Positions 2,766 through 21,708 of a stretch of DNA of 32,000 nucleotides are shown here, piece by piece. The notes under the pieces are model-generated. The model was not told the origin of the DNA. It searched no databases and saw only the letters and a list, made by a program, of their open reading frames with translations. This DNA is from an uncultured bacterium (GTDB taxonomy: Bacteria; Margulisbacteria; WOR-1; CAVSGV01): the NCBI GenBank assembly GCA_963699255.1, contig OY969425.1:870001-902000 (forward strand). The letters run 5' to 3'. Position numbers and translations under genes: made by a program. The first letter of the stretch is position 1, and every line of letters starts with the position of its first letter.

Positions 2766-2797
2766 CCCGCCGAAGCTTTAGCGAAGGCGGGTTTTTT
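2766..2797 (+). terminator. rho-independent terminator candidate
   Basis: GC stem cccgcc (2766-2771) pairs with ggcggg (2786-2791), followed by tttttt (2792-2797), 13 nt after the stop at 2753. Confidence 0.6.
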
Positions 2798-9920: not shown

Positions 9921-10886
9921 ATGGAACGTCATACTTATATACGCATAGCAAAGATCGATGCTCAGATCAGGCAGAAAAAGCACCCGAACTGCAAAAAGCT
10001 TGCTGATCAATTTGAAACCTCCCAACGCACCATACTCCGCGACATAGAGGCCATGAAGGATTCTATGGGCGCGCCCATCGGCTACAGCAAGGAGAGGAAC
10101 GGCTACTACTACACGGATGATAATTTTCAGTTGCCGGAAATACGACTTACGGAAGGCGAGCTTGTATCTATTTTCCTTGGTGAAGAAATTCTGAAAAAAT
10201 ACCAGGGAACGCCGTTCGGCTCCGTCATAACCAGCGCGTTCGAAAAGATTCGCCTCTCCTTGCCGGACTCCATATCTATAGACCTAAACACTATTAGCGA
10301 CAGTTTCTCTTTTAATATACCGCAAACCAGGAAACTGGATGAACAATCAGCAAAGACGTTCGATATATTGGCAAAAGCGATAAAAACTAAGAACAGTGTT
10401 GAAATAACATACCATGCTCTTGGCAGGAACACTATAGCAAAACGCATTGTGGATCCCTACCACCTGCGCCACTCCATGGGCACCTGGTATCTCATTGGTT
10501 ATTGCCAACTCAGGAAAGATTTTAGGACGTTTATTATTAACCAGATCCGCACCATCAAGGTCATAGATAGCAAGTACAAGGTTGACCCGACCTTTTCTAT
10601 TGAAAAGTTCCTTGCTTATTCATGGGATATTTTTGAGGGAGCTCCTATAACAAAGGTAAAAATTAAGCTGGATAAAGAGATCGCCAGATGGTTCATCGAT
10701 AGAAAGCTCCACCCCACCCAAAAGACAACCGAGAATAAGGATGGCTCAATTACGATGGAATTTAAAGTTTCAGGAACATCAGAGATAAAAAGATGGGTTT
10801 TGGGCCAGGGGAAATATGCAAAGGTGATCGAGCCACGAAGCCTGAGGCGGGAGATAATTGAAGAAGCAAAGGAAATGCAGAAATAG
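9921..10886 (+). CDS. HTH + WYL-domain transcriptional regulator (BrxR/CapW/PafBC-like)
   Basis: The N-terminal wHTH reads KKLADQFETSQRTILRDIEAM, followed by GYYY. The central WYL region reads HLRHSMGTWYLIGYCQLRKDFRTFIINQI. The gene is divergent from the nuclease/RM operon. Confidence 0.8.
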   Translation: MERHTYIRIAKIDAQIRQKKHPNCKKLADQFETSQRTILRDIEAMKDSMGAPIGYSKERNGYYYTDDNFQLPEIRLTEGELVSIFLGEEILKKYQGTPFGSVITSAFEKIRLSLPDSISIDLNTISDSFSFNIPQTRKLDEQSAKTFDILAKAIKTKNSVEITYHALGRNTIAKRIVDPYHLRHSMGTWYLIGYCQLRKDFRTFIINQIRTIKVIDSKYKVDPTFSIEKFLAYSWDIFEGAPITKVKIKLDKEIARWFIDRKLHPTQKTTENKDGSITMEFKVSGTSEIKRWVLGQGKYAKVIEPRSLRREIIEEAKEMQK

Positions 10887-11031
10887 ACCGCCTTTACATG
10901 ATTCTTCTACCCTCGTAGCCGCCTAATAGCCCCTTTTTGCAATAGGCCATATACTCTGACGCATAGTGTCATACCTCCCATGTTAAACTACCAAATAATA
11001 ATTATATTAAACAAAAACGAGGTGGATAAAC

Positions 11032-11475
11032 ATGCTAATTAAAGAAATATATAAGCTTTTCGACAATAAACTGGAAATACGCCCAAAAAGTAAAGCCTCC
11101 AATGTATTAAGGGACATCTCATCATTTCTTACAAAACCTGGATTGATCAATATAGAAGTGAAGGATCTTAATAAAATAATCTTATCAAGTGACAAGATGT
11201 TCGCCATATCGGCAAAAGCGCATGGAAAAGAAAGAGCTCACAAGCTTGGTCGCCAGATCGTTTCCAGTATTCCGGCTGTATTTCGGGCCAAAAAAGCTAC
11301 AAACGTAATTTTTAATATTATCGGGAGTTCAGACTTAACCCTCTGGGAGGTTAATGAAGTTGCCGGATATATCTATGATGCGATTGACCCTCATGCAAAT
11401 ATCATATTTGGCGCCCTTATCGACGATAAGAAAAAAGACTTTATTAATGCGACTGTCATATTCGGGGGCAATTAA
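11032..11475 (+). CDS. stand-alone FtsZ C-terminal-domain protein (no GTP-binding domain)
   Basis: SD gaggtgg precedes the ATG. It aligns by eye with the host FtsZ in this window: PGLINIEVKDL / NVIFNIIGSSDLTLWEVNEVAGYIYDAIDPHANIIFGALIDD versus [11 protein letters not shown] / [42 protein letters not shown]. Confidence 0.75.
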   Translation: MLIKEIYKLFDNKLEIRPKSKASNVLRDISSFLTKPGLINIEVKDLNKIILSSDKMFAISAKAHGKERAHKLGRQIVSSIPAVFRAKKATNVIFNIIGSSDLTLWEVNEVAGYIYDAIDPHANIIFGALIDDKKKDFINATVIFGGN

Positions 11476-11489
11476 AGGAGGTCTTGTAA

Positions 11490-12071
11490 ATGGATAAAGA
11501 GAAAGATATTTCCTATCGCAATGTCAGCTGTTCTAATGCGCCTGAAAGTAAGAACAATACAGTTCCAACGACCGATTCAAGAAGCATTTTGGTCTTTAAA
11601 CAGATGGATGATGAATTAACGAAGGATTTTGTTTCCAAGCTTATCGAGCTAGAAACCAAAGATGCTGAAAAGGACATTAAGGTATTCATAAATTCTCCGG
11701 GCGGATATGTTACATCATTATTTTGTATGTTGGATTCTTTGCGGTTGGTGAAGCCGGATATCAAGACTTACTGTCTTGGAGAGGCTGCTTCCGCCGCCGC
11801 GGTATTAACAATGTCAGGAACAAAAGGGAAGAGATATATTACAAAACATAGCAGGATTCTATTGCATCAGCTAAGTTCTTTTGCTTTGGGACACATAGCA
11901 GATGTCAAGATCTCTGTTAAAGAGTCGGAAAGAATAAATTCTATTCTAATGGATATAATAATTGAAAGAACAAAGATTAAAAGAAAAGAATTAAAAAAAT
12001 TGATATCGAGGGATTGTTGGCTGTCCGCACAAGAAGCACTGGAATATGGTTTAGTAGATCACATTCTGTAG
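11490..12071 (+). CDS. ClpP-family (S14) serine protease paralogue
   Basis: SD aaaggagg precedes the ATG. Motifs FINSPGGYV, GEAASAAAVL (Ser), ILLHQL (His) and SRDCWLSAQEALEYGLVD (Asp) follow the ClpP catalytic-triad contexts. The N-terminus is divergent. Confidence 0.8.
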   Translation: MDKEKDISYRNVSCSNAPESKNNTVPTTDSRSILVFKQMDDELTKDFVSKLIELETKDAEKDIKVFINSPGGYVTSLFCMLDSLRLVKPDIKTYCLGEAASAAAVLTMSGTKGKRYITKHSRILLHQLSSFALGHIADVKISVKESERINSILMDIIIERTKIKRKELKKLISRDCWLSAQEALEYGLVDHIL

Positions 12072-12096
12072 TTTTGCTCCACATGTTTTCCAGTAT

Positions 12097-12341
12097 AGCA
12101 TTTTACCGCCTTTCCCTGTAAAGCGCGCTCACATTGGGACTTCGTATAAAGCCCCCTATCCCGAAAAAAGTCCTCATCCTTGCGGATTTTTTCGGGTATT
12201 AGTTCTCGCCCTCCTCCAGTCGCCCGACTAAAGTCGAGGCTCCTTCCGGCCCTCCGCTCGTTGCACTCATTCACCATAATTAGATATTAGGTGTGGTTCA
12301 TTCGCTTCTCTCGCTTCGGGTGACAGGGGCGGTAAAATGCT
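12097..12341. other. structured non-coding element closed by a 14+5 bp long-range helix
   Basis: agcattttaccgcc (12097-12110) is the perfect reverse complement of ggcggtaaaatgct (12328-12341). cctgt (12115-12119) pairs with acagg (12323-12327). An internal hairpin reads cccgaaaaaagtcc...ggattttttcggg. Confidence 0.4.
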
Positions 12342-12383
12342 GTTCCTTCCTGTGTGTTTTTATTTCACAGGGAGGTGGTTTTC

Positions 12384-12911
12384 ATGTCTCGTTTAGCAGG
12401 CGTCATTGGTTCCCGTTCATTACCCGTTTCTTTTGCCCCGCTTGTTTACCACATCGTTTCCCTTCTCCTTTCCCGTGGCTATGGCATTGCCTCAGGTGGC
12501 GCAGTAGGAGCTGATTCATTTGCTCTTGCAGCGGTCATTCGGCGGGGGGTAGCTTCACGCTGTGTCATTTACTCAGCTTGGGCTTCTGCTTCTGGGTTTC
12601 CTTCCTCGGTTCAGCCTCAGGTTTCTCGTTTCCTTGCTTCCGGTGGTCAGGTTGTTTGGGGATCCTGTCCGGTTGGTGCTTCGCGTCAGGAGGCGGTTTC
12701 TGCCCTTCTCGGTAGGAACAGGCGGCTTGTTTCTGCTTCCTCGGTTATCGTTGCTTTCCTTCATGGTCAGTCTCGCGGGTCTCTTTACACGGTCCGTCAG
12801 GCAGTTGAGCAGGGTGTTCCGGTCATTGTGTTCCTTTGCGGCGGGGGTACGTCTTTGCCCGCTGATCTTACTTCCAGGTGTTTAGTATTTACAGAAAAGG
12901 AGGTGGTTTAG
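12384..12911 (+). CDS. DprA/Smf-like (SLOG superfamily) Rossmann-fold protein, nearly lysine-free
   Basis: SD ggaggtgg precedes the ATG at 12384. The motifs GVIGSRSLP...GYGIASGGAVGADSFA...GRNRRLV...SRGSLYTVRQAVEQGVPVIVF match the DprA core pattern. The coding strand is strongly A-depleted. Confidence 0.6.
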   Translation: MSRLAGVIGSRSLPVSFAPLVYHIVSLLLSRGYGIASGGAVGADSFALAAVIRRGVASRCVIYSAWASASGFPSSVQPQVSRFLASGGQVVWGSCPVGASRQEAVSALLGRNRRLVSASSVIVAFLHGQSRGSLYTVRQAVEQGVPVIVFLCGGGTSLPADLTSRCLVFTEKEVV

Positions 12912-12913
12912 TT

Positions 12914-13120
12914 ATGGTGGCATCAGTTTTGTCCCCCTGTCTTTGTTGCGACGATCATTTGCCCGGATTCCGCTGCGTTCCACGGCAGCGTGCCCGTTGT
13001 TCCAGGTTCCTTGAATATGTCGAGCGGCTCCACAGGGCCCGCGCTCACGGCATATTGATCAGCGAGCTTAAGGAAATTGTTTCCGGTTCCGTTGAAGAAA
13101 ACACAGAAAAAGTGAGGTGA
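12914..13120 (+). CDS. small Cys-rich hypothetical protein (68 aa)
   Basis: SD aaggaggtgg precedes the ATG at 12914. The sequence is CLCCDDH..C......C. The start is 3 nt after the upstream stop. Confidence 0.4.
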   Translation: MVASVLSPCLCCDDHLPGFRCVPRQRARCSRFLEYVERLHRARAHGILISELKEIVSGSVEENTEKVR

Positions 13121-13125
13121 AAATC

Positions 13126-13299
13126 ATGAGAATTTGTAGAGTATGCGGTTCATTCCTTGTTCCCTGCAACGAAGGAATAGATCATATCGGCTTCCAGCCA
13201 TATACCCTTCCGCAAACTGTTTATATCTGCCAGAGCTGTCTCACGGCAATACAGAACATAATCGAGTATGGTTATTCCTCTCAATTAGTCTCCGCTTAA
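13126..13299 (+). CDS. small zinc-ribbon protein (57 aa)
   Basis: SD gaggtg lies 6 nt upstream of the ATG at 13126. The CxxC...CxxC pattern is CRVCG...CQSC. Confidence 0.45.
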   Translation: MRICRVCGSFLVPCNEGIDHIGFQPYTLPQTVYICQSCLTAIQNIIEYGYSSQLVSA

Positions 13300-13305
13300 T
13301 CACCA

Positions 13306-13340
13306 AGGCCTGATTCATCATCAGAACAGGCCTCATTTTG
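13306..13340 (+). terminator. rho-independent terminator candidate
   Basis: aggcctg (13306-13312) pairs with caggcct (13327-13333), followed by cattttg. Confidence 0.5.
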
Positions 13341-13564
13341 GTCGCTAGCCAACTCTTCTTTGTATTAATAAATTCATACTTTGTCATATAAAACACTTAC
13401 ATTTCACAATATGTGCTAGTTGTGGTCAAGCTGGATCTATTTCGTAAAAGCAATGAAGGTGAGGCAAGGTCAAGGGTGAGTCCGCATCCATAATTATTGG
13501 CAACCCACTCACCCATTTATATCGTCACAATCTACAGGGACTATTTGCGGCAGTAGCAGTCATT

Positions 13565-13867
13565 TTACTCAGTTGTTTGAGTTGACTTCTTATATGCATA
13601 TACATATTTCGTTGAATAATCGCCACCACCTGGGCCACCATCAGTTTTCAGTGTGTTAACAAAATATTCTTCAACTTCTCTGGCTATATCCGAAGTAGCG
13701 CATTCGCGATAAATCCACAGGTCAGAATCCTTATTAACAGTATGATCCGTGAATAGCCGCTTTTGAGGATCAGATGCTATCCCAACATACCAATCTGAAT
13801 ATTTACTAGTAAGATTATTTATATACGTCTTAATATCTGCAATAATTTCAGGCTTACTTTTTGCCAT
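13565..13867 (-). CDS. small GIY-YIG-like domain protein (100 aa)
   Basis: SD aaaggagga precedes the internal ATG at 13867. The motifs WYVGIASDPQKRLFTDH...AREVEEYF loosely resemble the YVG...R...H...E core of GIY-YIG. Confidence 0.4.
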   Translation of the reverse strand: MAKSKPEIIADIKTYINNLTSKYSDWYVGIASDPQKRLFTDHTVNKDSDLWIYRECATSDIAREVEEYFVNTLKTDGGPGGGDYSTKYVYAYKKSTQTTE

Positions 13868-13935
13868 ATATGCTCCTCCTTTCTTAGACATTCAAATCTC
13901 GAGAATCGACCATCTCGCTGGGTTATATGACCCAG

Positions 13936-14139
13936 TCATCCTTTCCTGTTATAGGGAGATTGATTGGTCGGGCTTAATGAAATCCCTTCTTCACTAGCCT
14001 TTGTATAAACCGCAGCTTCTGTTCGTCCGGTTAGCAGGCCAATTACCCTTGTTGGGGTGTTCTTGTTGGCTAATTGTCTGATTTTTGATACATCAGCCTG
14101 TGTCCAAGGTTTCCCCGAATTCCTGTTATACTTTGCCAT
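13936..14139 (-). CDS. small Myb/SANT-like HTH protein (67 aa)
   Basis: The pattern is KPWTQADVSKIRQLA...RVIGLLTGRTEAAVYTKASEEGISL. Confidence 0.45.
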   Translation of the reverse strand: MAKYNRNSGKPWTQADVSKIRQLANKNTPTRVIGLLTGRTEAAVYTKASEEGISLSPTNQSPYNRKG

Positions 14140-14158
14140 AACTTTTCACCTCCCATAT

Positions 14159-15001
14159 TTAATAGGCATTGTCATCTACATACCGCTGGTAATCGTCACC
14201 AGTCCATATAAACACCACAACAGATCGCCCAGGATCGATTTCGAAGGCATACTCATTAATGCAGTAAGGTTGCTTTTTAAACTTTTCACTTATCCAACAT
14301 TTTGCCTGAACTTGAACTGGCTTATCAGATAAGGGGATCTGGCGAGTAAAATACCCATTAACAGTACTGACCGGGGATACTTTTTCGTTGACTGCCACAA
14401 AAAGGTGGTCTTCATTAAAGCTTTCTGAAGATTTAAACGATTTGATTTGTCCATCTTTCACGAAAATGGCTGCACAGATTCCATAAGTAAATTCTACAAA
14501 TCTTAACATGGCGGCAGTTTTTGATACATTATACTTATCCGAGACAACATCTATTGAAGCCATGTCTACATTTAGATCTTTGCACTCTTCGCGAAGAATA
14601 TCCTCGGGCATCAGCAATTCTGCCGCAAACTCATTTGCTTCCGCCTCTTCATCTCCTTTAAGGCCACTCTTAATCATATCATCTGGTGCACAGATATATT
14701 TCACGCCTTTATGATACGGAATGAAAATGTGCCCCAATTCATGTGCAATTGTGAACCTTTTCCGTTTTTCATATGTATATCTACTGTTAACGAGAATTCC
14801 AACATTCCCTTCGATCTTCACAGAATAGCCCTCGAAATGATCGGCATCCTCTTCCTCTATTGTGACATTATGGCTTCTTGCGATTCCCCTGACATCTATT
14901 GGAAGAGAGTTATACTTGGCATCAGACTCCATCAGAAGCTTCTTTGCAAAAAACGATGCGGGATCCTCATTAAACCTAGGTTGACTCATCTTATTTATCA
15001 C
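14159..15001 (-). CDS. ImmA/IrrE-family (M78) zinc metallopeptidase with approx 130-aa C-terminal extension
   Basis: The HEXXH motif sits in FTIAHELGHIFIPYH, with EANEFAAELLMP downstream. The ORF overlaps the upstream gene by 11 nt. Confidence 0.75.
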   Translation of the reverse strand: MINKMSQPRFNEDPASFFAKKLLMESDAKYNSLPIDVRGIARSHNVTIEEEDADHFEGYSVKIEGNVGILVNSRYTYEKRKRFTIAHELGHIFIPYHKGVKYICAPDDMIKSGLKGDEEAEANEFAAELLMPEDILREECKDLNVDMASIDVVSDKYNVSKTAAMLRFVEFTYGICAAIFVKDGQIKSFKSSESFNEDHLFVAVNEKVSPVSTVNGYFTRQIPLSDKPVQVQAKCWISEKFKKQPYCINEYAFEIDPGRSVVVFIWTGDDYQRYVDDNAY

Positions 15002-15410
15002 CCTTCTTGATCTTTATATTAAACCTTTCAATTAACTCTTTATCCTTTGAGGTAAGCCCTTCATTGCCTTTTCTAAAAGCACCTTGGAGCAGTGGTTGTA
15101 GCAAAGAGGGTGTCATCTGACTCTGTTGGGCGGCAGGAGCGGCCTTCTTGCCATATAAAGTCTCATATTTTTGCTCAATAAAATCGAGCACCTTAGCTTT
15201 AAAACCAGAAGAGACCTTTAAGGCATGGAAATATTCCTTTGCCTCGTAAGCGCTTTTAAGAAGTTCTTTTGCCTCGCTCGCCTGTGCCGGAGTTAAATGC
15301 CTAGACTCAATAAATGCTTCGAGATCTGGTGAAGGATTCACTTTAGTTTCTTCAATCCATGCATCAAGAACTGTTTCATACAATAATTCACTTCTCTCTT
15401 TATCCTTCAT
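14991..15410 (-). CDS. hypothetical soluble protein (139 aa), candidate anti-sigma/adaptor
   Basis: Its start overlaps the sigma stop as ATGA at 15407-15410. No TM helix and no recognisable motif. The role is inferred from position only. Confidence 0.45.
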   Translation of the reverse strand: MKDKERSELLYETVLDAWIEETKVNPSPDLEAFIESRHLTPAQASEAKELLKSAYEAKEYFHALKVSSGFKAKVLDFIEQKYETLYGKKAAPAAQQSQMTPSLLQPLLQGAFRKGNEGLTSKDKELIERFNIKIKKGDK

Positions 15411-15997
15411 CTTTCCCCCTCCTTTTTATCCCTTATCTTTCCATAATAGTTTTTAATTTTCACGGTTCCTCTCAAGACCAAATTTTTGATTGAGGCCTCC
15501 GATTTATCCATAACAAGTGCAACCTCTTTAGTGTTCAGTTCATCTACATATCTCAACATTAAGGCTTCACGCTGCTCCTCTGTTAATTCGTTTAAACATT
15601 GACCCATTTCTGCAGCCGTTTCGCTGTGAGCCTCCTGTTCAATTAATTCCGTTTCCAGGTCGCAAGTCTCGAGGTCTTCTAAAAGCTCCGCGTCCAATTT
15701 AAGTTCAGAAAAGGACGTTTCCCGTTTCTTTTTCCTAAAATAATCAGAGCAACAATTTCGAGCGATCCTAAATGCCCATGTTGTGAATTTTGATTGACCC
15801 TTGAAGGTATCAAATTTCTCCAAAATATGGGAAAACGTCTCCGCAGTTATTTCGTATTTTTCATCGCTATTTTCAACTTGGCTCCCTACAAACCTTTCCA
15901 CATCGTCGTAGATTCCCTCACATAACTGCCTAAACGCCCTTTTGTCCCCATTACGCGCTTTTTCTAATAAGTCTTCACTGTTCAATAATATGGCCAC
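15407..15997 (-). CDS. ECF-type sigma-70 family RNA polymerase sigma factor
   Basis: Region 2 reads TWAFRIARNCCSDYFRKKKRE. Region 4 reads LTEEQREALMLRYVDELNTKEVALVMDKSEASIKNLVLRG. The start is uncertain: GTG at 15997 or TTG at 15985. Confidence 0.8.
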   Translation of the reverse strand: MAILLNSEDLLEKARNGDKRAFRQLCEGIYDDVERFVGSQVENSDEKYEITAETFSHILEKFDTFKGQSKFTTWAFRIARNCCSDYFRKKKRETSFSELKLDAELLEDLETCDLETELIEQEAHSETAAEMGQCLNELTEEQREALMLRYVDELNTKEVALVMDKSEASIKNLVLRGTVKIKNYYGKIRDKKEGER

Positions 15998-16149
15998 CTT
16001 TCATAAGTTGTGTGCATGATCATCCCTTCTTCCCCTCTATATATTAGACGTAAAAGTCACCTAAAAGTCTCGTTTATTTGGAGATATTACAAACTCATTT
16101 TACTCCTTGCATTTATCATTGTATAATCCCCCCCCAAACATTTTGGGCT

Positions 16150-16963: not shown

Positions 16964-17040
16964 GGTAGTCATAAGTGCTTCTTGCTCCCGTGGATAGTAT
17001 TAGGTAGAATTATCGAGAAAGTTCGAAGATGACTCGAGTT

Positions 17041-17210
17041 CCCAGTAATCTTATAGCTACAAACCTTAGCTAACCCCAATTTTTCATCGGCACCGGCTCC
17101 GTTTTTTTCTGGCTGGTCGGTTCGGCGGCCAAAAATGGGCGGGGGCATTTTTGGCCGCCGGTCATGCTCCGCACCGCCCGAAACACAAGCATTTGCGGCG
17201 GGCAGGCAAA
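17041..17210 (+). repeat. IR-L: left copy of a perfect 170-bp inverted repeat
   Basis: Checked block by block: identical to the reverse complement of 18789-18958. It contains a perfect 15-bp-stem hairpin, cggcggccaaaaatg/catttttggccgccg. Confidence 0.95.
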
Positions 17211-17274
17211 CCTATTGCCTCTATTGTCTCTTTTGAAAACGATTTTGGATGTTTGACTAACTTTATCAGCTTCT

Positions 17275-17511
17275 CTATTTAGTTAGTTTATCCATTGAAA
17301 GACCCAAAGCATCTGCTATAGCTTTTACCATTTCAATTCCCGGATTCTTGACCGATCCATTTTCAACCCTCATTAAATGGATTGAAGTAAATTTGCCGTC
17401 GCACTTATGAGCCAACTTTTCGCGTGACAATCCGGCCTTTTTACGGTATTTCTCTATATTCTTACCTAGGTTCATTAGTATTATTTTATCATCCTTCATA
17501 TATCTTGACAT
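17275..17511 (-). CDS. XRE-family HTH transcriptional regulator (78 aa)
   Basis: The HTH_3 pattern is LGKNIEKYRKKAGLSREKLAHKC...LMRVENG...P.IEMVKAIADALGLSMDKL. Confidence 0.75.
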   Translation of the reverse strand: MSRYMKDDKIILMNLGKNIEKYRKKAGLSREKLAHKCDGKFTSIHLMRVENGSVKNPGIEMVKAIADALGLSMDKLTK

Positions 17512-17532
17512 ATATACATATATGTATATACT
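17505..17532 (+). promoter_or_regulatory. candidate promoter TTGACA-16 nt-TATACT whose spacer and -10 overlap a perfect 20-bp palindrome (17511-17530)
   Basis: ttgaca is at 17505-17510, tatact at 17527-17532, and the palindrome is tatatacatatatgtatata. There is no SD before the ATG at 17540, which suggests a leaderless recombinase mRNA. Confidence 0.4.
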
Positions 17533-17539
17533 ATTCCCG

Positions 17540-19087
17540 ATGAAAATAAAAGTAGCCGTCTATACTAGAGTGTCTACCGACAACCAGGCCGAGCTTGAAT
17601 TCAATTCTTGCGAAGCTCAGGAAGCTAAGATTAACGCGTTTATCTCCAGTCAGGAGGGAATGGAAGTATTCAATGTCTATTCCGATCCCGGCTATAGCGG
17701 GGCGAATCTTAACCGCCCCGCTATGTCAGAACTGCTTGCCGACATTGAACAGGGCAAAATCGATATTGTCATATCTTACAAGATCGACAGGCTTACAAGG
17801 TCGCCAAAGGATTTCTATCACCTGATAGAGATATTCGACGGGCATAATGTATCATTTATCTCCGTAACCGAACGATTCGACACCTCTACTCCATCCGGAC
17901 GGCTCCTCAGGAATATCATGCTTACCTTTGCCCAGTTCGAGCGTGAGTTGACTAGCGAGAGGACAAGTGATAAAGCCCTCGAACGGGCAAAGAAAGGGCT
18001 TTATGGCGGCGGTGTTCGCCCTTTTGGCTATGTAAGGGCGAACAAGAAAATTATTGCGGAGCCGACCGAAGCCGCTATCATCCGAAGGATTTTCGAAACT
18101 TATATCAGGACGACGTCATTATTCAAGACTTACGAAGCCTTAAAGGCGGCTGGAATACGAAAAGGAAATAATCGCGTGTTTACTAAAGGCGACTTATTCA
18201 ACCTGCTTAGAAAACCCGTCTATGCAGGAAAGATATTGCATAATGGCACGATTTATCAGGGCATACATGAGCCGATTATCAGCGAAGAACAGTTCGAGCA
18301 AGCCCAAACGATTCATCGACATAAACTGGTCCCAAAGTGGCACCCTGCTAAGCCATTCCTTTTCCCCGGCCTCGTTAAGTGTAAGGAATGCGGCTCGACC
18401 ATGACCACAACCTTTACCAACAAGATCAAACTGAAAAAGAGGAAAAGGTATTATTACTACAATTGCACTTCAGTCTTCAAGAAAGACTGGTCAGCTTGCT
18501 CGACCAAGCTTGTCAGCGCGACTAGGCTTGAAGACTTCATCATTGAAAACTTTGAACGTATATCTCTCGATAATCTATATCTTGAAGGTTTGTGTCTTAA
18601 GCACAAAAGTATGGCCTCTGGCCACGAACAGGGATTCGAACTTTTGGATATTAAACCTGAGGGCATTAAAGAAACTCTCGTAAATGTAGTAGAAAAAGCT
18701 ACATCTAAAGAAGCTATAAACAAATCCCTGGCTTTAAGAAATTACATACAGAGCATAATTTATTCAAAAGAGTCAATAGAGATAAAGCTTTGCCTGCCCG
18801 CCGCAAATGCTTGTGTTTCGGGCGGTGCGGAGCATGACCGGCGGCCAAAAATGCCCCCGCCCATTTTTGGCCGCCGAACCGACCAGCCAGAAAAAAACGG
18901 AGCCGGTGCCGATGAAAAATTGGGGTTAGCTAAGGTTTGTAGCTATAAGATTACTGGGGGACAGGGATTCGAACCCCGATACGCAGCTCCAGAGGCTGCA
19001 GTCCTACCGTTAGACGATCCCCCAAAGCCGAACTATATCCTGTCAAATATTTTCTTTAAGACTCTTCTGCCTGTGGTAGACTTATAA
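17540..19087 (+). CDS. large serine recombinase; conserved part ends about 18788, and the ORF then runs without a stop through IR-R, the tRNA and antisense GIY-YIG
   Basis: The catalytic region reads KVAVYTRVSTDNQ, followed by SYKIDRLTRS, a recombinase domain, a zinc ribbon (CKECGST...YYYYNC), a coiled-coil region and an ESIEIKL-type end. The approx 100-aa tail beyond 18788 is probably not native. Confidence 0.8.
   Translation: MKIKVAVYTRVSTDNQAELEFNSCEAQEAKINAFISSQEGMEVFNVYSDPGYSGANLNRPAMSELLADIEQGKIDIVISYKIDRLTRSPKDFYHLIEIFDGHNVSFISVTERFDTSTPSGRLLRNIMLTFAQFERELTSERTSDKALERAKKGLYGGGVRPFGYVRANKKIIAEPTEAAIIRRIFETYIRTTSLFKTYEALKAAGIRKGNNRVFTKGDLFNLLRKPVYAGKILHNGTIYQGIHEPIISEEQFEQAQTIHRHKLVPKWHPAKPFLFPGLVKCKECGSTMTTTFTNKIKLKKRKRYYYYNCTSVFKKDWSACSTKLVSATRLEDFIIENFERISLDNLYLEGLCLKHKSMASGHEQGFELLDIKPEGIKETLVNVVEKATSKEAINKSLALRNYIQSIIYSKESIEIKLCLPAANACVSGGAEHDRRPKMPPPIFGRRTDQPEKNGAGADEKLGLAKVCSYKITGGQGFEPRYAAPEAAVLPLDDPPKPNYILSNIFFKTLLPVVDL
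18789..18958 (-). repeat. IR-R: right copy of the perfect 170-bp inverted repeat
   Basis: It is the reverse complement of 17041-17210. Its outer 5 nt (cccag) overlap the 3' end of tRNA-Gln. Confidence 0.95.
18954..19024 (-). tRNA. tRNA-Gln (anticodon CUG), no encoded CCA
   Basis: Folded manually. The acceptor stem is UGGGGGA/UCCCCCA, the D arm GUCU/GGAC, the anticodon arm GCAGC-CUCUGGA-GCUGC and the T arm CGGGG-UUCGAAU-CCCUG. Confidence 0.85.
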
Positions 19088-19287
19088 TACTTTTCTCTCT
19101 TACGCGCTTCATTAAAACTATCAAACTCTTCAAGACAAACTAGTTCCCATGGCATATATCTTTTCGTATAAAAATGTTTTCCAGAATTATGCTCTCTCAA
19201 CCTTCTATTAATATCATTGGTTACTCCAACATAACTCTTTGAGGTGATTTTACTCTTAAGAACATATACTTTATATTCCACATTCAT
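19033..19287 (-). CDS. small GIY-YIG nuclease-family protein (UPF0213/YhbQ-like, 84 aa)
   Basis: The sequence reads YKVYVLKS...SYVGVTNDINRRLREHNSG...NEARKREKYYKS. The stop lies 8 nt upstream of the tRNA-Gln 5' end. Confidence 0.8.
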   Translation of the reverse strand: MNVEYKVYVLKSKITSKSYVGVTNDINRRLREHNSGKHFYTKRYMPWELVCLEEFDSFNEARKREKYYKSTTGRRVLKKIFDRI

Positions 19288-19291
19288 AACT

Positions 19292-19355
19292 CCAGAGTCA
19301 GCAGTCCTACTCGCCTCGCTTCGCTCGTCGAAGCGGGCCGTTAGACGATCCCCCA
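19292..19355 (-). pseudogene. diverged duplicate of the tRNA-Gln 5' half (positions 1 to about 39) with a 27-nt hairpin insertion in the D loop
   Basis: An 18-nt stretch, tgggggatcgtctaacgg, is identical to the tRNA. After the insert, taggactgctgactctggag matches taggactgcagcctctggag at 17/20. Confidence 0.65.
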
Positions 19356-19467
19356 ACGCTTCGACTCGCTTTCGCTCGCTCAGCGTAATGACAAATTACC
19401 AATGACAAATTCCAAATTGGGTATTGAAGGATTGGAAATTAATTTGGAATTGAAAATTGGTAATTGA

Positions 19468-19719
19468 TCATTTTGCCGCTGGCCACCATGGCGGTATCCA
19501 CCACTGCGGCTGGAATATCAGAATGAAAAGACCATAAAGCACGATGAAGATCGAAAGTCCTATGAAAATCTTGAACTGCCAGGACATCGGTTCCTTCCAT
19601 CTCTTTACCATCCAATAGGAAAAACCTAGAGCTGCTAGGCCGGCAATGATCACCGTGATCCCTTTAAAGACCGGATTGCTGTATGTATAGATGAAAAAAC
19701 TTACGCCTTTCGGTTCCAT
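19468..19719 (-). CDS. small hydrophobic membrane protein (83 aa)
   Basis: It has three predicted TM segments and a W/P-rich C-terminus. It lies downstream of ftsZ on the same strand. Confidence 0.45.
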   Translation of the reverse strand: MEPKGVSFFIYTYSNPVFKGITVIIAGLAALGFSYWMVKRWKEPMSWQFKIFIGLSIFIVLYGLFILIFQPQWWIPPWWPAAK

Positions 19720-19774
19720 AGTTAGGGAATTATATCACAAGAAGATGCCATTACAAACAAGTTGAAATGTTTAT

Positions 19775-20842
19775 TTATATGTTCTTTAGAAATGCGGGGA
19801 GTTCTATTTTTTCCTTGGGCTGGACCATCTCGGGCCTTATTTTGGCCCTTATCGCGGATTCCTCGGTCCCCGTCTCTTTTTCCAGATGCTTGAAACCGGT
19901 GGCGATCACTGTGATCACAACCTCTCCCTGGAGTTTCTCATCGATCACAGCGCCAAATATGATGTTCGCCTCAGGGTCGACCGCGTTATATATCACTTCT
20001 GCGGCGTCGTTCACTTCATAAAGCGTCAGGTCGCTTCCTCCCGTGACATTGAACACCACGCCTTTTGCTCCGTTTATGGTTTCTTCCAGGAGCGGGCTTG
20101 ATATCGCCTGTTCCGCGGCCTCCACCGCCCTGTTCTCTCCTGAAGCCGTGCCGATCCCCATCATCGCGGACCCGGCGTCGAACATGATCGTCCTTATGTC
20201 CGCAAAATCAAGATTGATCAATCCAGGTATCGTTATCAGGTCTGATATGCCTTTTACCCCGTGACGCAGAACATCATCGGCTATTCTGAATGCGTCAATG
20301 ATGGAGGTGCGCTTCTCAACGACCTGCAGGAGTTTGTCGTTCGGAATGACTATGAGGGCGTCAACTTTTTCCCTCAAAAGCACTACGCCGCTTTCTGCCT
20401 GCGAGATCCTTACCGGGCCCTCGAACCTGAACGGCTTTGTCACAACGCCGACGGTTAAAGCTCCAAGCTCCCTCGCGACCTCGGCGATTATTGGAGAGGC
20501 CCCCGTTCCGGTCCCGCCGCCCATGCCGGCGGTCAGGAAAACCATATCGGCATCTGCGAGCGCTTGTTTGATCTCTTCGCGGGATTCTTCGGCGGCTTTC
20601 TGCCCTATCTCAGGATTTGATCCAGCGCCGAGCCCCTTGGTCAATTTTCCGCCTATGGAGAGTTTGTGGTCCGCGAGTGATACTGATAAAGCCTGGATGT
20701 CCGTGTTTACAGCCCAAAATTCAACGCCTCTAAGTCCCGAGCCTATCATCCTGTTAACGGCGTTCGTCCCGCCGCCGCCTATTCCCATTACTTTTATTGT
20801 CGCGAAGGTTTTTGTGCCCTCGGCAGCATCAACATTATTCAC
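19775..20842 (-). CDS. ftsZ: cell division protein FtsZ
   Basis: Motifs: [26 protein letters not shown]7 loop NLDFADIRT, and the C-terminal peptide [10 protein letters not shown]. Confidence 0.95.
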
Positions 20843-20931
20843 CTGATTATGCCCCCAATTAAATCATCCTTGGAGCCCTGTAAGCCGTTAATATAACAGA
20901 TTTCGCGGGAAAAGCAAGCGGTTTTCGGCGA

Positions 20932-21708
20932 TCATTTATATTTAATAACTGGACTGTCCGGGACCCTTACATCTATATAATCCAACTTTGTCCACTTGCC
21001 TTTTACCGAACCAAGCATGGCCTTAACGATCATTATTTTCTTTTCCATGTCCCTCGGATCCCCGATCTTCACCTTCAGGATATCTTCAATATATATTATT
21101 ATGTCTTCCCTGTTGCCCGCTTCTATCTGTATCGTCCCAAGATCGATGAATTTTGACAGCATGTTCAGCGCAGCTCTGACAAATGCCCTGTCGCCGGAAT
21201 TAAGCCTGATCCCGCCCTCAAGGGACCCTTTATTGATCCCTCTTATGACCGGAAGCTTAGCGATATCAGATCTGTACACGGAAGAAGTCAGGCTTTGCTT
21301 GGCAATAATGTATCCTTCGTCATCAATTAAAGAAGCAACTCCTCCGATCACCGCCAAGGCGAAAGGAGTCCTTTCCTTAACGTCAATAACGATGGTGTGG
21401 GGCAGCTCCCATTTTACATTGATATCCTTGATCTGGACAACATTTGAATACTGTTTTTTAACTTTATCAAGATCGATCAGAAAGATGTTCTCTCCCTGAG
21501 GTATCTTGGCCGCATTGACGATCTTCGCCTCGGATATATAATTATTGCCGACAACCCGGACGGATGTTACCCTCCAGATGGGGAGAGACAGGATAAATCC
21601 GGCCAGTATGGAAACAAGGATCAGCGTCAGTGCGGTCCATACCGCGTACCATTCGACCAGCTTCTTCAGGTTCCTTGGTCTTGTTCTTTCCTTTTTAACG
21701 GGGGGCAT
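20932..21708 (-). CDS. ftsQ: cell division protein FtsQ (POTRA domain)
   Basis: There is one N-terminal TM helix and a POTRA-like segment (VRVVGNNYISEAKIVNAA). Its position between ddl and ftsZ fits. Confidence 0.8.
   Translation of the reverse strand: MPPVKKERTRPRNLKKLVEWYAVWTALTLILVSILAGFILSLPIWRVTSVRVVGNNYISEAKIVNAAKIPQGENIFLIDLDKVKKQYSNVVQIKDINVKWELPHTIVIDVKERTPFALAVIGGVASLIDDEGYIIAKQSLTSSVYRSDIAKLPVIRGINKGSLEGGIRLNSGDRAFVRAALNMLSKFIDLGTIQIEAGNREDIIIYIEDILKVKIGDPRDMEKKIMIVKAMLGSVKGKWTKLDYIDVRVPDSPVIKYK

Follow-up and report, generated by a model that had tools for sequence, protein, structure and literature searches.

A GIY-YIG nuclease gene nested in a tRNA-Gln gene of an uncultured WOR-1 bacterium looks like one copy of a tRNA-associated cassette family found in several phyla

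In a 32,000-nucleotide (nt) stretch of the genome of an uncultured Margulisbacteria (WOR-1) bacterium (GenBank assembly GCA_963699255.1, contig OY969425.1, positions 870,001 to 902,000; this whole stretch is referred to here as the window), a gene predicted to encode an 84-amino-acid (aa) GIY-YIG nuclease lies between an intact tRNA-Gln(CUG) gene and a partial copy of the 5' part of a tRNA-Gln gene. This locus raises the question of how a nuclease gene came to be nested within a tRNA gene, and whether it is the agent or a passenger of that arrangement. Compared with related genomes and metagenome contigs, the segment looks like one copy of a large family of tRNA-nested GIY-YIG cassettes present in several phyla. 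Homing and other selfish nuclease genes are a known kind of element, and we rate the tRNA-nested, hairpin-marked architecture as the new part. In a literature search that left subscription journals mostly uncovered, we found no account of a GIY-YIG gene lying inside a tRNA gene together with a partial tRNA copy.

Read 5' to 3' on the minus strand, the partial copy begins with tRNA-Gln positions 1 to 18 and one preceding base (19356..19338), a segment identical at 19/19 nt to 19025..19007 with a spacing of 331 nt (repeat finder, repeat D4; blastn-short). The initial annotation had likewise described an identical repeat of positions 1 to 18 and a duplicated unit of about 331 bp. This was the single extra copy of the tRNA-Gln 5' part genome-wide (blastn-short, E = 3.5e-4), and its 18-mer occurred in the 1.77-Mb genome at two sites in total, one in this copy and one in the intact tRNA gene. 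Between tRNA positions 18 and 19, the copy is interrupted by a GC-rich insert of 28 nt (CCCGCTTCGACGAGCGAAGCGAGGCGAG; 19337..19310), predicted to form a hairpin of about 10 bp when folded as single-stranded DNA (ssDNA). The right part of the copy (19309..19290; TAGGACTGCtGaCTCTGGAG, 20 nt) aligned with tRNA positions 19 to 39 and carried two substitutions relative to the intact tRNA (GCAGC to GCTGA), with 37/39 positions identical over the whole partial copy. The D-loop hairpin and the diverged D-stem/anticodon-arm part had both been recognized in the initial annotation, which counted 27 nt and three substitutions where 28 nt and two were measured. A TT dinucleotide (2 nt) separates the partial copy from the ATG of the nuclease open reading frame (ORF; 19287..19033; Pfam PF01541), for which an in-frame GTG at 19281 may instead be the true start; GGAG within the right part of the copy may be a candidate ribosome-binding site. 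After a spacer (19026..19032) of 7 nt by ARAGORN bounds or 8 nt by Rfam bounds, the intact tRNA-Gln(CUG) follows at 19024/19025..18953/18954 (ARAGORN; Rfam tRNA, 55.9 bits, E = 1.5e-10). The positions first given for the ORF, 2 nt past the partial copy, and for the tRNA, 8 nt past the nuclease stop, were therefore sound. The genome encodes one tRNA-Gln(CTG) and one tRNA-Gln(TTG), with no second CUG isoacceptor.

The architecture was not attributable to chance, because the same layout occurred at dozens of independent loci. A set of 98 GIY-YIG domains was assembled, comprising 93 from the window genome and 40 relatives of the same class and 5 from the closest fetched contigs. Between 0 and 6 GIY-YIG matches were found per genome, with at least one homologue in 36 of the 41 genomes. 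The domains lay directly 5' of a same-strand tRNA in 45/98 cases, involving 12 isotypes and often with a stop codon overlapping the tRNA, and immediately 3' of a tRNA (Gln or Asn in most cases) in 19/98; 30/98 had no nearby tRNA, and 4/98 were at contig ends. The chance of such tRNA adjacency was estimated at about 0.3% per gene. The distance from nuclease stop to tRNA in relatives ranged from a 52-nt overlap to a 113-nt gap. A partial copy was scored when the 260 nt preceding the start codon contained an ungapped stretch of 15 nt or more matching the downstream tRNA. GIY-YIG genes beside partial tRNA copies, a pattern to be looked for in related genomes if the locus was the footprint of an element, were recovered at 37/44 relatives' loci, compared to 9/83 control regions, and in an independent set of species genomes at 31/52 loci, compared to 6/98 controls. 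A scan of species genomes with a nine-sequence alignment returned at least 510 relatives of the nuclease; among the best 80, which were examined, a tRNA was directly downstream in 56. These best 80 loci belonged to Patescibacteria, Bacteroidota, WOR-1, Ignavibacteria, and others; the Bacteroidota included cultured Flavobacteriia (for example, Polaribacter, Flagellimonas, and Sunxiuqinia), whose cassette is of the Arg type.

Phylogeny tied the nuclease to its tRNA context. A maximum-likelihood tree separated a clade of genes 5' of tRNAs from a clade of genes 3' of tRNAs or without one (99% support), and the tRNA labels required 36 changes on this tree, compared to a shuffle mean of 64.6 (0 of 200 shuffles as low), although orthologues inflate this figure. 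The window protein fell in a clade of six (95% support), five of which are beside tRNA-Gln; the contig of the sixth ends after the start of a Gln-like tRNA. Its nearest homologues in a collection of 5.8 billion proteins, with 69 to 79% identity, were encoded on metagenome and Patescibacteria contigs. All of those fetched were located 5' of tRNA-Gln and carried the same type of hairpin at the same or nearby D-arm positions. Paralogues within the window's own class were at most 54% identical to the window protein. A second GIY-YIG gene in the same genome (C1:322885-323088; L002:1489-1749) encodes an 86-aa protein that is 37% identical; it belongs to the other major clade, has no tRNA nearby, and shares 4 nt with the end of the 176-aa ORF upstream of it. 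The core idea of the initial annotation, that of a GIY-YIG element, is supported by the tRNA adjacency of the family, by the existence of empty sites (see below), and by closest homologues that sit beside tRNA-Gln in other phyla.

Hairpin type covaried with nuclease clade across loci. The Gln clade carries hairpins of 38 to 40 nt (CCCGCCTCG...CGAGGCGGG) after tRNA position 9/10 or 16 to 18, present in L064, L066, L068, L131-L142, L240, and L245 (L numbers denote loci or contigs and G numbers denote genomes). Arg, Leu, and Met cassettes carry a 20-nt palindrome (CCTGCCTGCCGGCAGGCAGG), Pro, Asp, and Tyr cassettes carry double hairpins of about 80 nt, and Ser cassettes carry paired 15-mers. The 28-nt window hairpin is a short variant of the Gln type, identical to the second hairpin of locus L139, which is the same DNA as L005 of the class relative G031; no further copy of it was found in its own genome. 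Across these sequences, the hairpin is a conserved, clade-specific component of the cassette and not incidental.

The end point of the partial copy did not behave as first proposed. The initial annotation had singled out the break in the anticodon loop as a site of the kind used by tRNA introns and some integrases. In relatives, the partial copies end anywhere from about position 24 to full length, and so the analogy is unsupported. A tRNA intron or group I intron was rejected as a candidate, given that an intact tRNA follows, that the break position varies, and that no Rfam intron was detected; a scan of window positions 17000-21000 against Rfam matched the tRNA alone and no intron.

An integrase would leave a superficially similar trace. 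Integrase-encoding islands target tRNA genes, carry a copy of the part that they displace, and leave a partial duplicate (PMC9897764), such that the tRNA remains functional, as at the window locus. The partial copy could then be the attachment-site duplicate of a neighboring serine recombinase island or of another integrase, with the GIY-YIG gene as cargo. An island of this type does occur in the window (17041-19087) and abuts the 3' end of the tRNA-Gln(CUG). A 173-nt, 99% inverted repeat (17041-17213 and 18786-18958) encloses its module of an xre-type helix-turn-helix (HTH) gene and a large recombinase gene, with one arm extending into the final 6 nt of the tRNA. The open frame of the recombinase (17522-19087) continues through the antisense of the tRNA into the antisense of the end of the GIY-YIG gene, and an 80%-identical recombinase remnant was found beside tRNA-Gln in G016. 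Yet it is the 5' part of the tRNA that is duplicated, at a distance of only 331 nt and on the side opposite the recombinase island, and the 331-nt unit contains the GIY-YIG ORF only. Integrase islands are kilobases in length, carry an integrase gene, and as a rule duplicate the tRNA's 3' part, whereas the cassette is about 0.33 kb, has no integrase, and duplicates a 5' part interrupted by a conserved hairpin. Loci L064, L066, and L068, the nearest of the fetched cassettes, have the same layout with no recombinase among their called neighbor genes, the layout recurs at dozens of other tRNA loci, and the covariation of hairpin and nuclease clade would be unexplained for an incidental cargo gene. 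An integrase footprint is already contradicted by these comparative data, and we consider it extremely unlikely.

Whether the cassette comes and goes was examined at the orthologous sites. The upstream neighbor of the window tRNA-Gln is a small membrane-like ORF, designated orf83 (19468..19719, minus strand; no match in Pfam and NCBIfam profile searches), which adjoins tRNA-Gln(CTG) in about 20 relatives (tblastn) and is conserved in this position across the class. The comparison with empty tRNA-Gln sites foreseen in the initial annotation was therefore possible: in many relatives, orf83 is followed 10 to 40 nt on by tRNA-Gln(CUG) with no cassette, and empty orf83-tRNA-Gln(CTG) sites were identified in L037, L038, L045, L049, L241, L242, and L243. 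A pattern derived from orf83 fetched six sediment-metagenome contigs (L240-L245). L240 and L245 are occupied, with nucleases 76 to 79% identical to that of the window, and L244 has no cassette on the 5' side and a weak GIY-YIG match downstream of its tRNA. Occupied L064 and empty L242 were about 88% identical on both flanks and differed by a 320-nt indel; the upstream flanks of occupied L240 and empty L243 were 97.5% identical up to the partial copy. The conserved orf83-tRNA-Gln site is polymorphic for the presence and absence of the cassette, which is the pattern looked for in homing genes. Within family f1, which includes the window genome, G005 has a native tRNA with a nuclease gene on its 3' side; G001 combines a native tRNA and a 3'-side gene with a 5' partial copy that bears a hairpin but no ORF; G002 has a foreign tRNA-Gln followed by a native 3' part with a hairpin in its T-loop; and the window has the 5' partial copy, the nuclease gene, and the tRNA. 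The contribution of this locus lies partly in that range of states, with absent, 5'-side, 3'-side, and ORF-less cassettes within one bacterial family. Four of the six metagenome contigs (L240, L242, L243, and L244) have an extra ORF of about 400 nt between orf83 and tRNA-Gln, which by eye resembles the four-helix-bundle proteins of rRNA intervening sequences and is a further sign of an insertion hot spot.

The locus also contributes a clear case of allelic difference between the working tRNA and its disabled copy. The tRNA-Gln(CUG) of family f1 is marked by the anticodon stem GCTGA/TCAGC, the variable region TAATC, and the T-loop TTCAAAT, and tRNAs of this type were found in G001, G005, L241, L242, and L245. 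The partial copy in the window has the f1-type GCTGA. At the same three places, the intact tRNA reads GCAGC/GCTGC, GTATC, and TTCGAAT; it is identical at 73/73 positions to the tRNA-Gln of G040, G016, G012, and G025, which belong to other families, and to that of families f8 and f12, and it also matches the tRNA of the closest cassette, L064, in full. In-place duplication does not yield this pattern. By sequence, the intact tRNA-Gln(CUG) is probably cassette-borne, and the most parsimonious account would be truncation of the resident gene and acquisition, along with the nuclease gene, of a whole foreign tRNA. The initial annotation had proposed a minimal GIY-YIG-carrying mobile element that keeps the tRNA functional by supplying a replacement 5' half, leaving the old 5' half to decay. 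The mobile element and the old 5' piece left behind are both supported by the f1-type partial copy beside a non-family intact tRNA. The replacement was probably the whole tRNA and not its 5' half, since the 3' half of the intact tRNA is also of the non-family type, and the hairpin is more than an accident of decay.

Other loci had similar mismatches between copies. The acceptor strand of the L064 partial copy is of the L243 type and is unable to pair with the 3' strand of the working tRNA; in G002, the native 3' partial copy with its T-loop hairpin beside a foreign tRNA is replacement-like; the partial 3' copy downstream of the window genome's own tRNA-Gln(UUG) differs in its acceptor strand from the working tRNA; and in L027, the partial copy and the tRNA are separated by four compensatory base-pair changes. 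Pairwise DNA identities suggested that the window genome and G005 are the closest pair within f1, and an FtsZ protein tree did not resolve the branching order inside f1. Two simpler schemes were considered. A target-site duplication was rejected, as it conflicts with the differing alleles of the partial copy and tRNA in the window, L064, and L027 and with the position of the hairpin inside contiguous tRNA sequence. Insertion at position 18/19 of a single unit made up of the hairpin, the right part of the partial copy, the ORF, and tRNA positions 1 to 18 is disfavored by L064 and G002, although the window by itself could fit it.

The anatomy of these loci, combined with the precedents of Ssn and SegB, led us to favor, as probable though well short of certain, a mobile homing-type selfish cassette that enters cognate tRNA genes through recombination and brings along a tRNA to take the place of the resident one. 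Its components would be a GIY-YIG gene of about 80 to 90 codons (Slx1/UPF0213/Ssn-like), a clade-specific hairpin, a partial tRNA copy on the 5' side, and an intact tRNA on the 3' side. Horizontal spread of such a cassette to cognate tRNA genes would proceed by homology-dependent repair or recombination, in which the left homology arm would be the partial copy and the right arm the intact tRNA. The near universality of tRNA sequence would let these arms work across species and even phyla, which would explain the spread across phyla. A break made by the nuclease would probably stimulate the event, either in ssDNA next to its own hairpin, by analogy with Ssn, or in a stem-loop of the tRNA gene. 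In the window, the resident f1 tRNA-Gln(CUG) would have been cut down to its 5' 39 nt, now the hairpin-bearing partial copy, and the tRNA now in use would be a complete tRNA-Gln(CUG) of another lineage that entered together with the nuclease gene. The activity and target of the nuclease, the recombination route, the direction of replacement, and cotranscription are points that we infer.

Ssn nucleases are single-domain GIY-YIG proteins of about 94 aa that bind their own ssDNA hairpin repeat and cut just upstream of it (PMC11893778). The cassette shares with this system (SsnA with NTS/SRM hairpins; Chenal et al. 2025, PMC11893778) a single GIY-YIG domain of about 90 aa with no DNA-binding domain, GC hairpins that flank the gene and covary in sequence with the protein lineage, and the hairpin-gene-hairpin layout that the authors note as insertion sequence-like. 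The published SRM motif had no match in 19 Gln-clade cassettes and four matches in the window genome, compared to 6 to 13 in shuffled sequence, and was thus not enriched. Neisseria genomes hold hundreds of dispersed hairpins, whereas the window hairpin occurs nowhere else in its genome; the window gene lies inside a tRNA gene and beside a partial copy of it, whereas the Ssn paper never mentions tRNA (PMC11893778); and the best solved-structure matches of the window protein were UPF0213 proteins and Slx1. We therefore treat the cassette nuclease as Ssn-like by analogy in how it may work and, since the SRM motif did not recur, do not file it as a proven member of the Ssn family, which is defined by CDD cd10448.

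The second precedent, SegB of phage T4, is a GIY-YIG homing enzyme that recognizes a tRNA T-arm motif and drags neighboring tRNA genes along (PMC2330249). Like the window gene, it is free-standing; it lies between tRNA genes and is cotransferred with them by repair of the cut recipient (PMC2330249). Its spread with adjacent tRNA genes matches the cassette logic proposed here, including the cotransfer of a tRNA. SegB cuts double-stranded DNA at a 27-bp recognition site (PMC2330249), whereas the window protein is a bare 84-aa catalytic domain. SegB is also phage-borne and has neither a partial tRNA duplicate nor a hairpin, whereas the cassette is chromosomal. Seg enzymes are larger, multidomain proteins, and the window protein does not combine a catalytic domain with a sequence-reading DNA-binding domain as they do.

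Several observations weigh against the homing-type reading. For the window alone, replacement could have run in the reverse direction, with a resident of the GCAGC type and the right part of the partial copy having arrived with the element; L243 and L244, which have the f1 orf83 pattern, natively carry a GCAGC-type tRNA. In L245, the native type is found in both copies, the partial and the intact one, and in many loci, the partial copy is identical to its tRNA, which also fits in situ duplication or ongoing gene conversion. The 3' half of the old tRNA is not visible downstream at the window locus. The hairpin is flanked on both sides by resident-type tRNA sequence in the window and in L064, unlike what simple double-crossover homing would leave, so that a separate insertion step or patchy heteroduplex repair is needed. 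The empty and occupied pairs are tentative, as metagenome contigs can be chimeric at tRNA genes. A tblastn search of sequenced phages and plasmids with the nuclease gave no match at E 1e-5, and strong purifying selection (see below) is compatible with a host-beneficial role as well. For any tRNA-nested member, we likewise infer activity, cleavage site, and transfer.

The position of the hairpin inside contiguous tRNA sequence, sometimes in several copies, suggests a separate hairpin-insertion step, and this step is the basis of two further proposals. In the first, the mobile unit would be the hairpin with the nuclease gene, moving by a hairpin-guided, transposition-like insertion with the logic of IS200/IS605 or REP/RAYT elements: ssDNA would be cut at the cloverleaf loops, the element and its hairpins pasted in, and the 5' part of the tRNA duplicated during repair. 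Hairpins were located at tRNA loop or junction positions of about 9 to 10, 16 to 18, 22 to 24, 32 to 37, and 57, several partial copies hold two or three of them, and isotype switches occurred with the hairpin type retained, for example, from Pro to Asp in one well-supported clade. The many partial copies identical to the adjacent tRNA and the two native copies of L245 also agree with this proposal, as does the action of Ssn enzymes on ssDNA hairpins, whose resemblance to insertion sequences was noted by their authors (PMC11893778). The cassette shares with IS200/IS605 and REP/RAYT systems a small nuclease gene with its own hairpin repeats and a putative action on ssDNA, whereas those systems have no tRNA nesting and no partial tRNA copies. 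Their enzymes are HUH tyrosine transposases that form covalent intermediates, whereas GIY-YIG proteins are hydrolytic nucleases with no known strand-transfer activity. The allele differences between partial copy and tRNA in the window, L064, G002, and L027 are not expected from in-place duplication, and the window hairpin has no other genomic copy, unlike IS200/IS605 or REP/RAYT repeats. Transposition-like insertion is unlikely on this balance.

The second proposal builds on the homing-type cassette and is speculative, and we give it only a small chance of being correct. The cassette would bring its own tRNA while the nuclease-hairpin system disables the resident copy by inserting hairpins into the cloverleaf loops of the resident tRNA gene, such that the host would depend on the cassette tRNA and could not lose the element. 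If true, such plug-and-replace addiction would define a new class of selfish element for which one essential, universally conserved RNA gene serves as addiction token, homology arm, and homing target at the same time. Its driver would be a single-domain, hairpin-guided nuclease acting on ssDNA that can pass from one phylum to another.

The nuclease itself appears intact. Its match to the Pfam GIY-YIG family (E = 2.3e-18; 66.7 bits versus a cutoff of 22.6) covers residues 6 to 74 of 84, and an NCBIfam search gave a subthreshold match to a group I intron endonuclease model. In an alignment of 20 homologues, Y8, Y19, G21, H33, R64, and E65 were invariant and R29, E32, and N34 were nearly so; by analogy with I-TevI and Slx1, these would be catalytic-type residues, including the two motif tyrosines, the arginine, and the metal-binding glutamate. 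The AlphaFold2 model (predicted local distance difference test [pLDDT] score, 90) is one compact domain of the GIY-YIG fold, a three-stranded sheet with packed helices, in the order strand-strand-helix-strand-helix-helix, and Pfam and this model indicated a catalytic domain only, with no extra DNA-binding domain. The best Foldseek matches were the UPF0213 protein 1zg2 and the Slx1 nuclease domains 6seh, 7cq2, and 4xlg (TM-score, 0.64 to 0.68), with weaker matches to I-TevI (1ln0) and UvrC (1yd6). Slx1 and UPF0213 (YhbQ-like) proteins are thus the closest in both sequence and fold (1zg2, E = 2e-6). Slx1 acts on branched, structured DNA, which fits a structure-reading enzyme, and needs a RING domain and its partner Slx4. 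We know of no established mobile context for UPF0213, and to our knowledge, neither Slx1 nor UPF0213 is linked to tRNA genes. The ratio of nonsynonymous to synonymous substitutions (dN/dS) between the window nuclease and that of L064 was 0.09, so the gene is maintained and not decaying.

This strong purifying selection, together with a homologue in 36/41 genomes, could also point to a domesticated or host-beneficial gene, that is, an Ssn-like factor for ssDNA restriction or recombination control expressed from tRNA promoters, with the partial tRNA copies and hairpins as by-products of local recombination and not of present mobility. SsnA in Neisseria limits transformation, a host-level role, and one clade of the family is rich in orphan copies without a tRNA, including the second copy in the window genome. 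The distribution is patchy per tRNA locus, however, with empty, 5'-side, 3'-side, and ORF-less states within one family and 0 to 6 matches per genome; the nearest relatives belong to other phyla, and a host function leaves the replacement of the tRNA by a foreign allele unexplained. A primarily host-beneficial gene is accordingly quite improbable.

Expression of the locus may depend on sequences upstream of orf83. A sigma-70-like promoter (TTGTAA-16-TATAAT with TG; consensus match) was located at 19729..19756 on the minus strand, and a scan between orf83 and the tRNA found no consensus promoter, so that this is the sole consensus candidate for expression of the whole array from orf83 through the partial copy and the nuclease gene to the tRNA. 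One terminator-like site was found, inside orf83 (19641-19623), with no excess over shuffled sequence (1 versus a mean of 0.9). Given the promoter upstream of orf83, none further down, and a terminator no better than shuffles, it is plausible that the nuclease gene and the tRNA are cotranscribed from the upstream orf83/tRNA promoter, with RNase P freeing the tRNA. Directly 5' of the partial copy is a GC-rich leader (ACGCTGAGCGAGCGAAAGCGAGTCGAAGCG; 19357..19386, minus strand), and a similar small hairpin precedes the tRNA-Gln of relatives; the leader is probably the native tRNA leader. It was also considered as a cassette end akin to the hairpins of 3'-side cassettes, which it resembles less than it does the native leader hairpin of relatives.

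If the homing-type reading is right, tRNA genes are parasitized in Patescibacteria, Bacteroidota, Margulisbacteria/WOR-1, Ignavibacteria, and others by what would be among the smallest autonomous mobile units known, of about 330 nt and one 84-aa protein. The cassettes would then provide an unrecognized route of horizontal tRNA gene exchange in which host tRNAs are swapped for foreign alleles, as well as a source of tRNA gene fragments that confuse annotation, and hairpin-guided ssDNA nucleases of the Ssn type would gain a natural selfish-element context. The clade-specific pairs of nuclease and hairpin are candidates for programmable ssDNA cutting tools.

Partial tRNA copies were also found without a nuclease gene, in G001 and beside tRNA-Pro(GGG) in the window genome, and these ORF-less copies look like decayed cassettes. 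In the window genome, such nuclease-less copies accompany five other tRNA genes (C1:1511642-1511853, 1041401-1041689, 1461219-1461386, 1565128-1565318, and 635364-635543). The copy at tRNA-Pro(GGG) is a 32-nt 5' copy located 133 nt upstream, and hairpin-bearing copies of the 3' part lie downstream of tRNA-Ala(GGC), tRNA-Gln(UUG), tRNA-Met, and tRNA-Gly(CCC). Two other repeated hairpins were observed in this genome. A family of 26-nt GC palindromes (CCCGCCGAAGCYTTRGCGAAGGCGGG) has five copies (window 2766-2791 and C1:248578, 695156, 1059198, and 1490051), and about 21 copies were counted of a CCCGAC...GTCGGG hairpin; several directly follow tRNA genes and may be terminators.

ARAGORN predicted 44 tRNA genes in the window genome, with tRNA-Asn(GUU) not among them. 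Integrated islands occur elsewhere in this genome as well: the 3' part of tRNA-Met (positions 34 to 75) is exactly repeated about 30 kb downstream (C1:911567-942238), as is typical of an integrated island, and shorter repeats occur at 942332 and 947053. Window positions 9921-16000 contain probable island cargo, including genes for a WYL/HTH regulator, ClpP, a DprA-like fragment, an M78 (IrrE-like) peptidase, and an extracytoplasmic function (ECF) sigma factor, together with an odd 147-aa ORF that has the C-terminal domain of FtsZ only.

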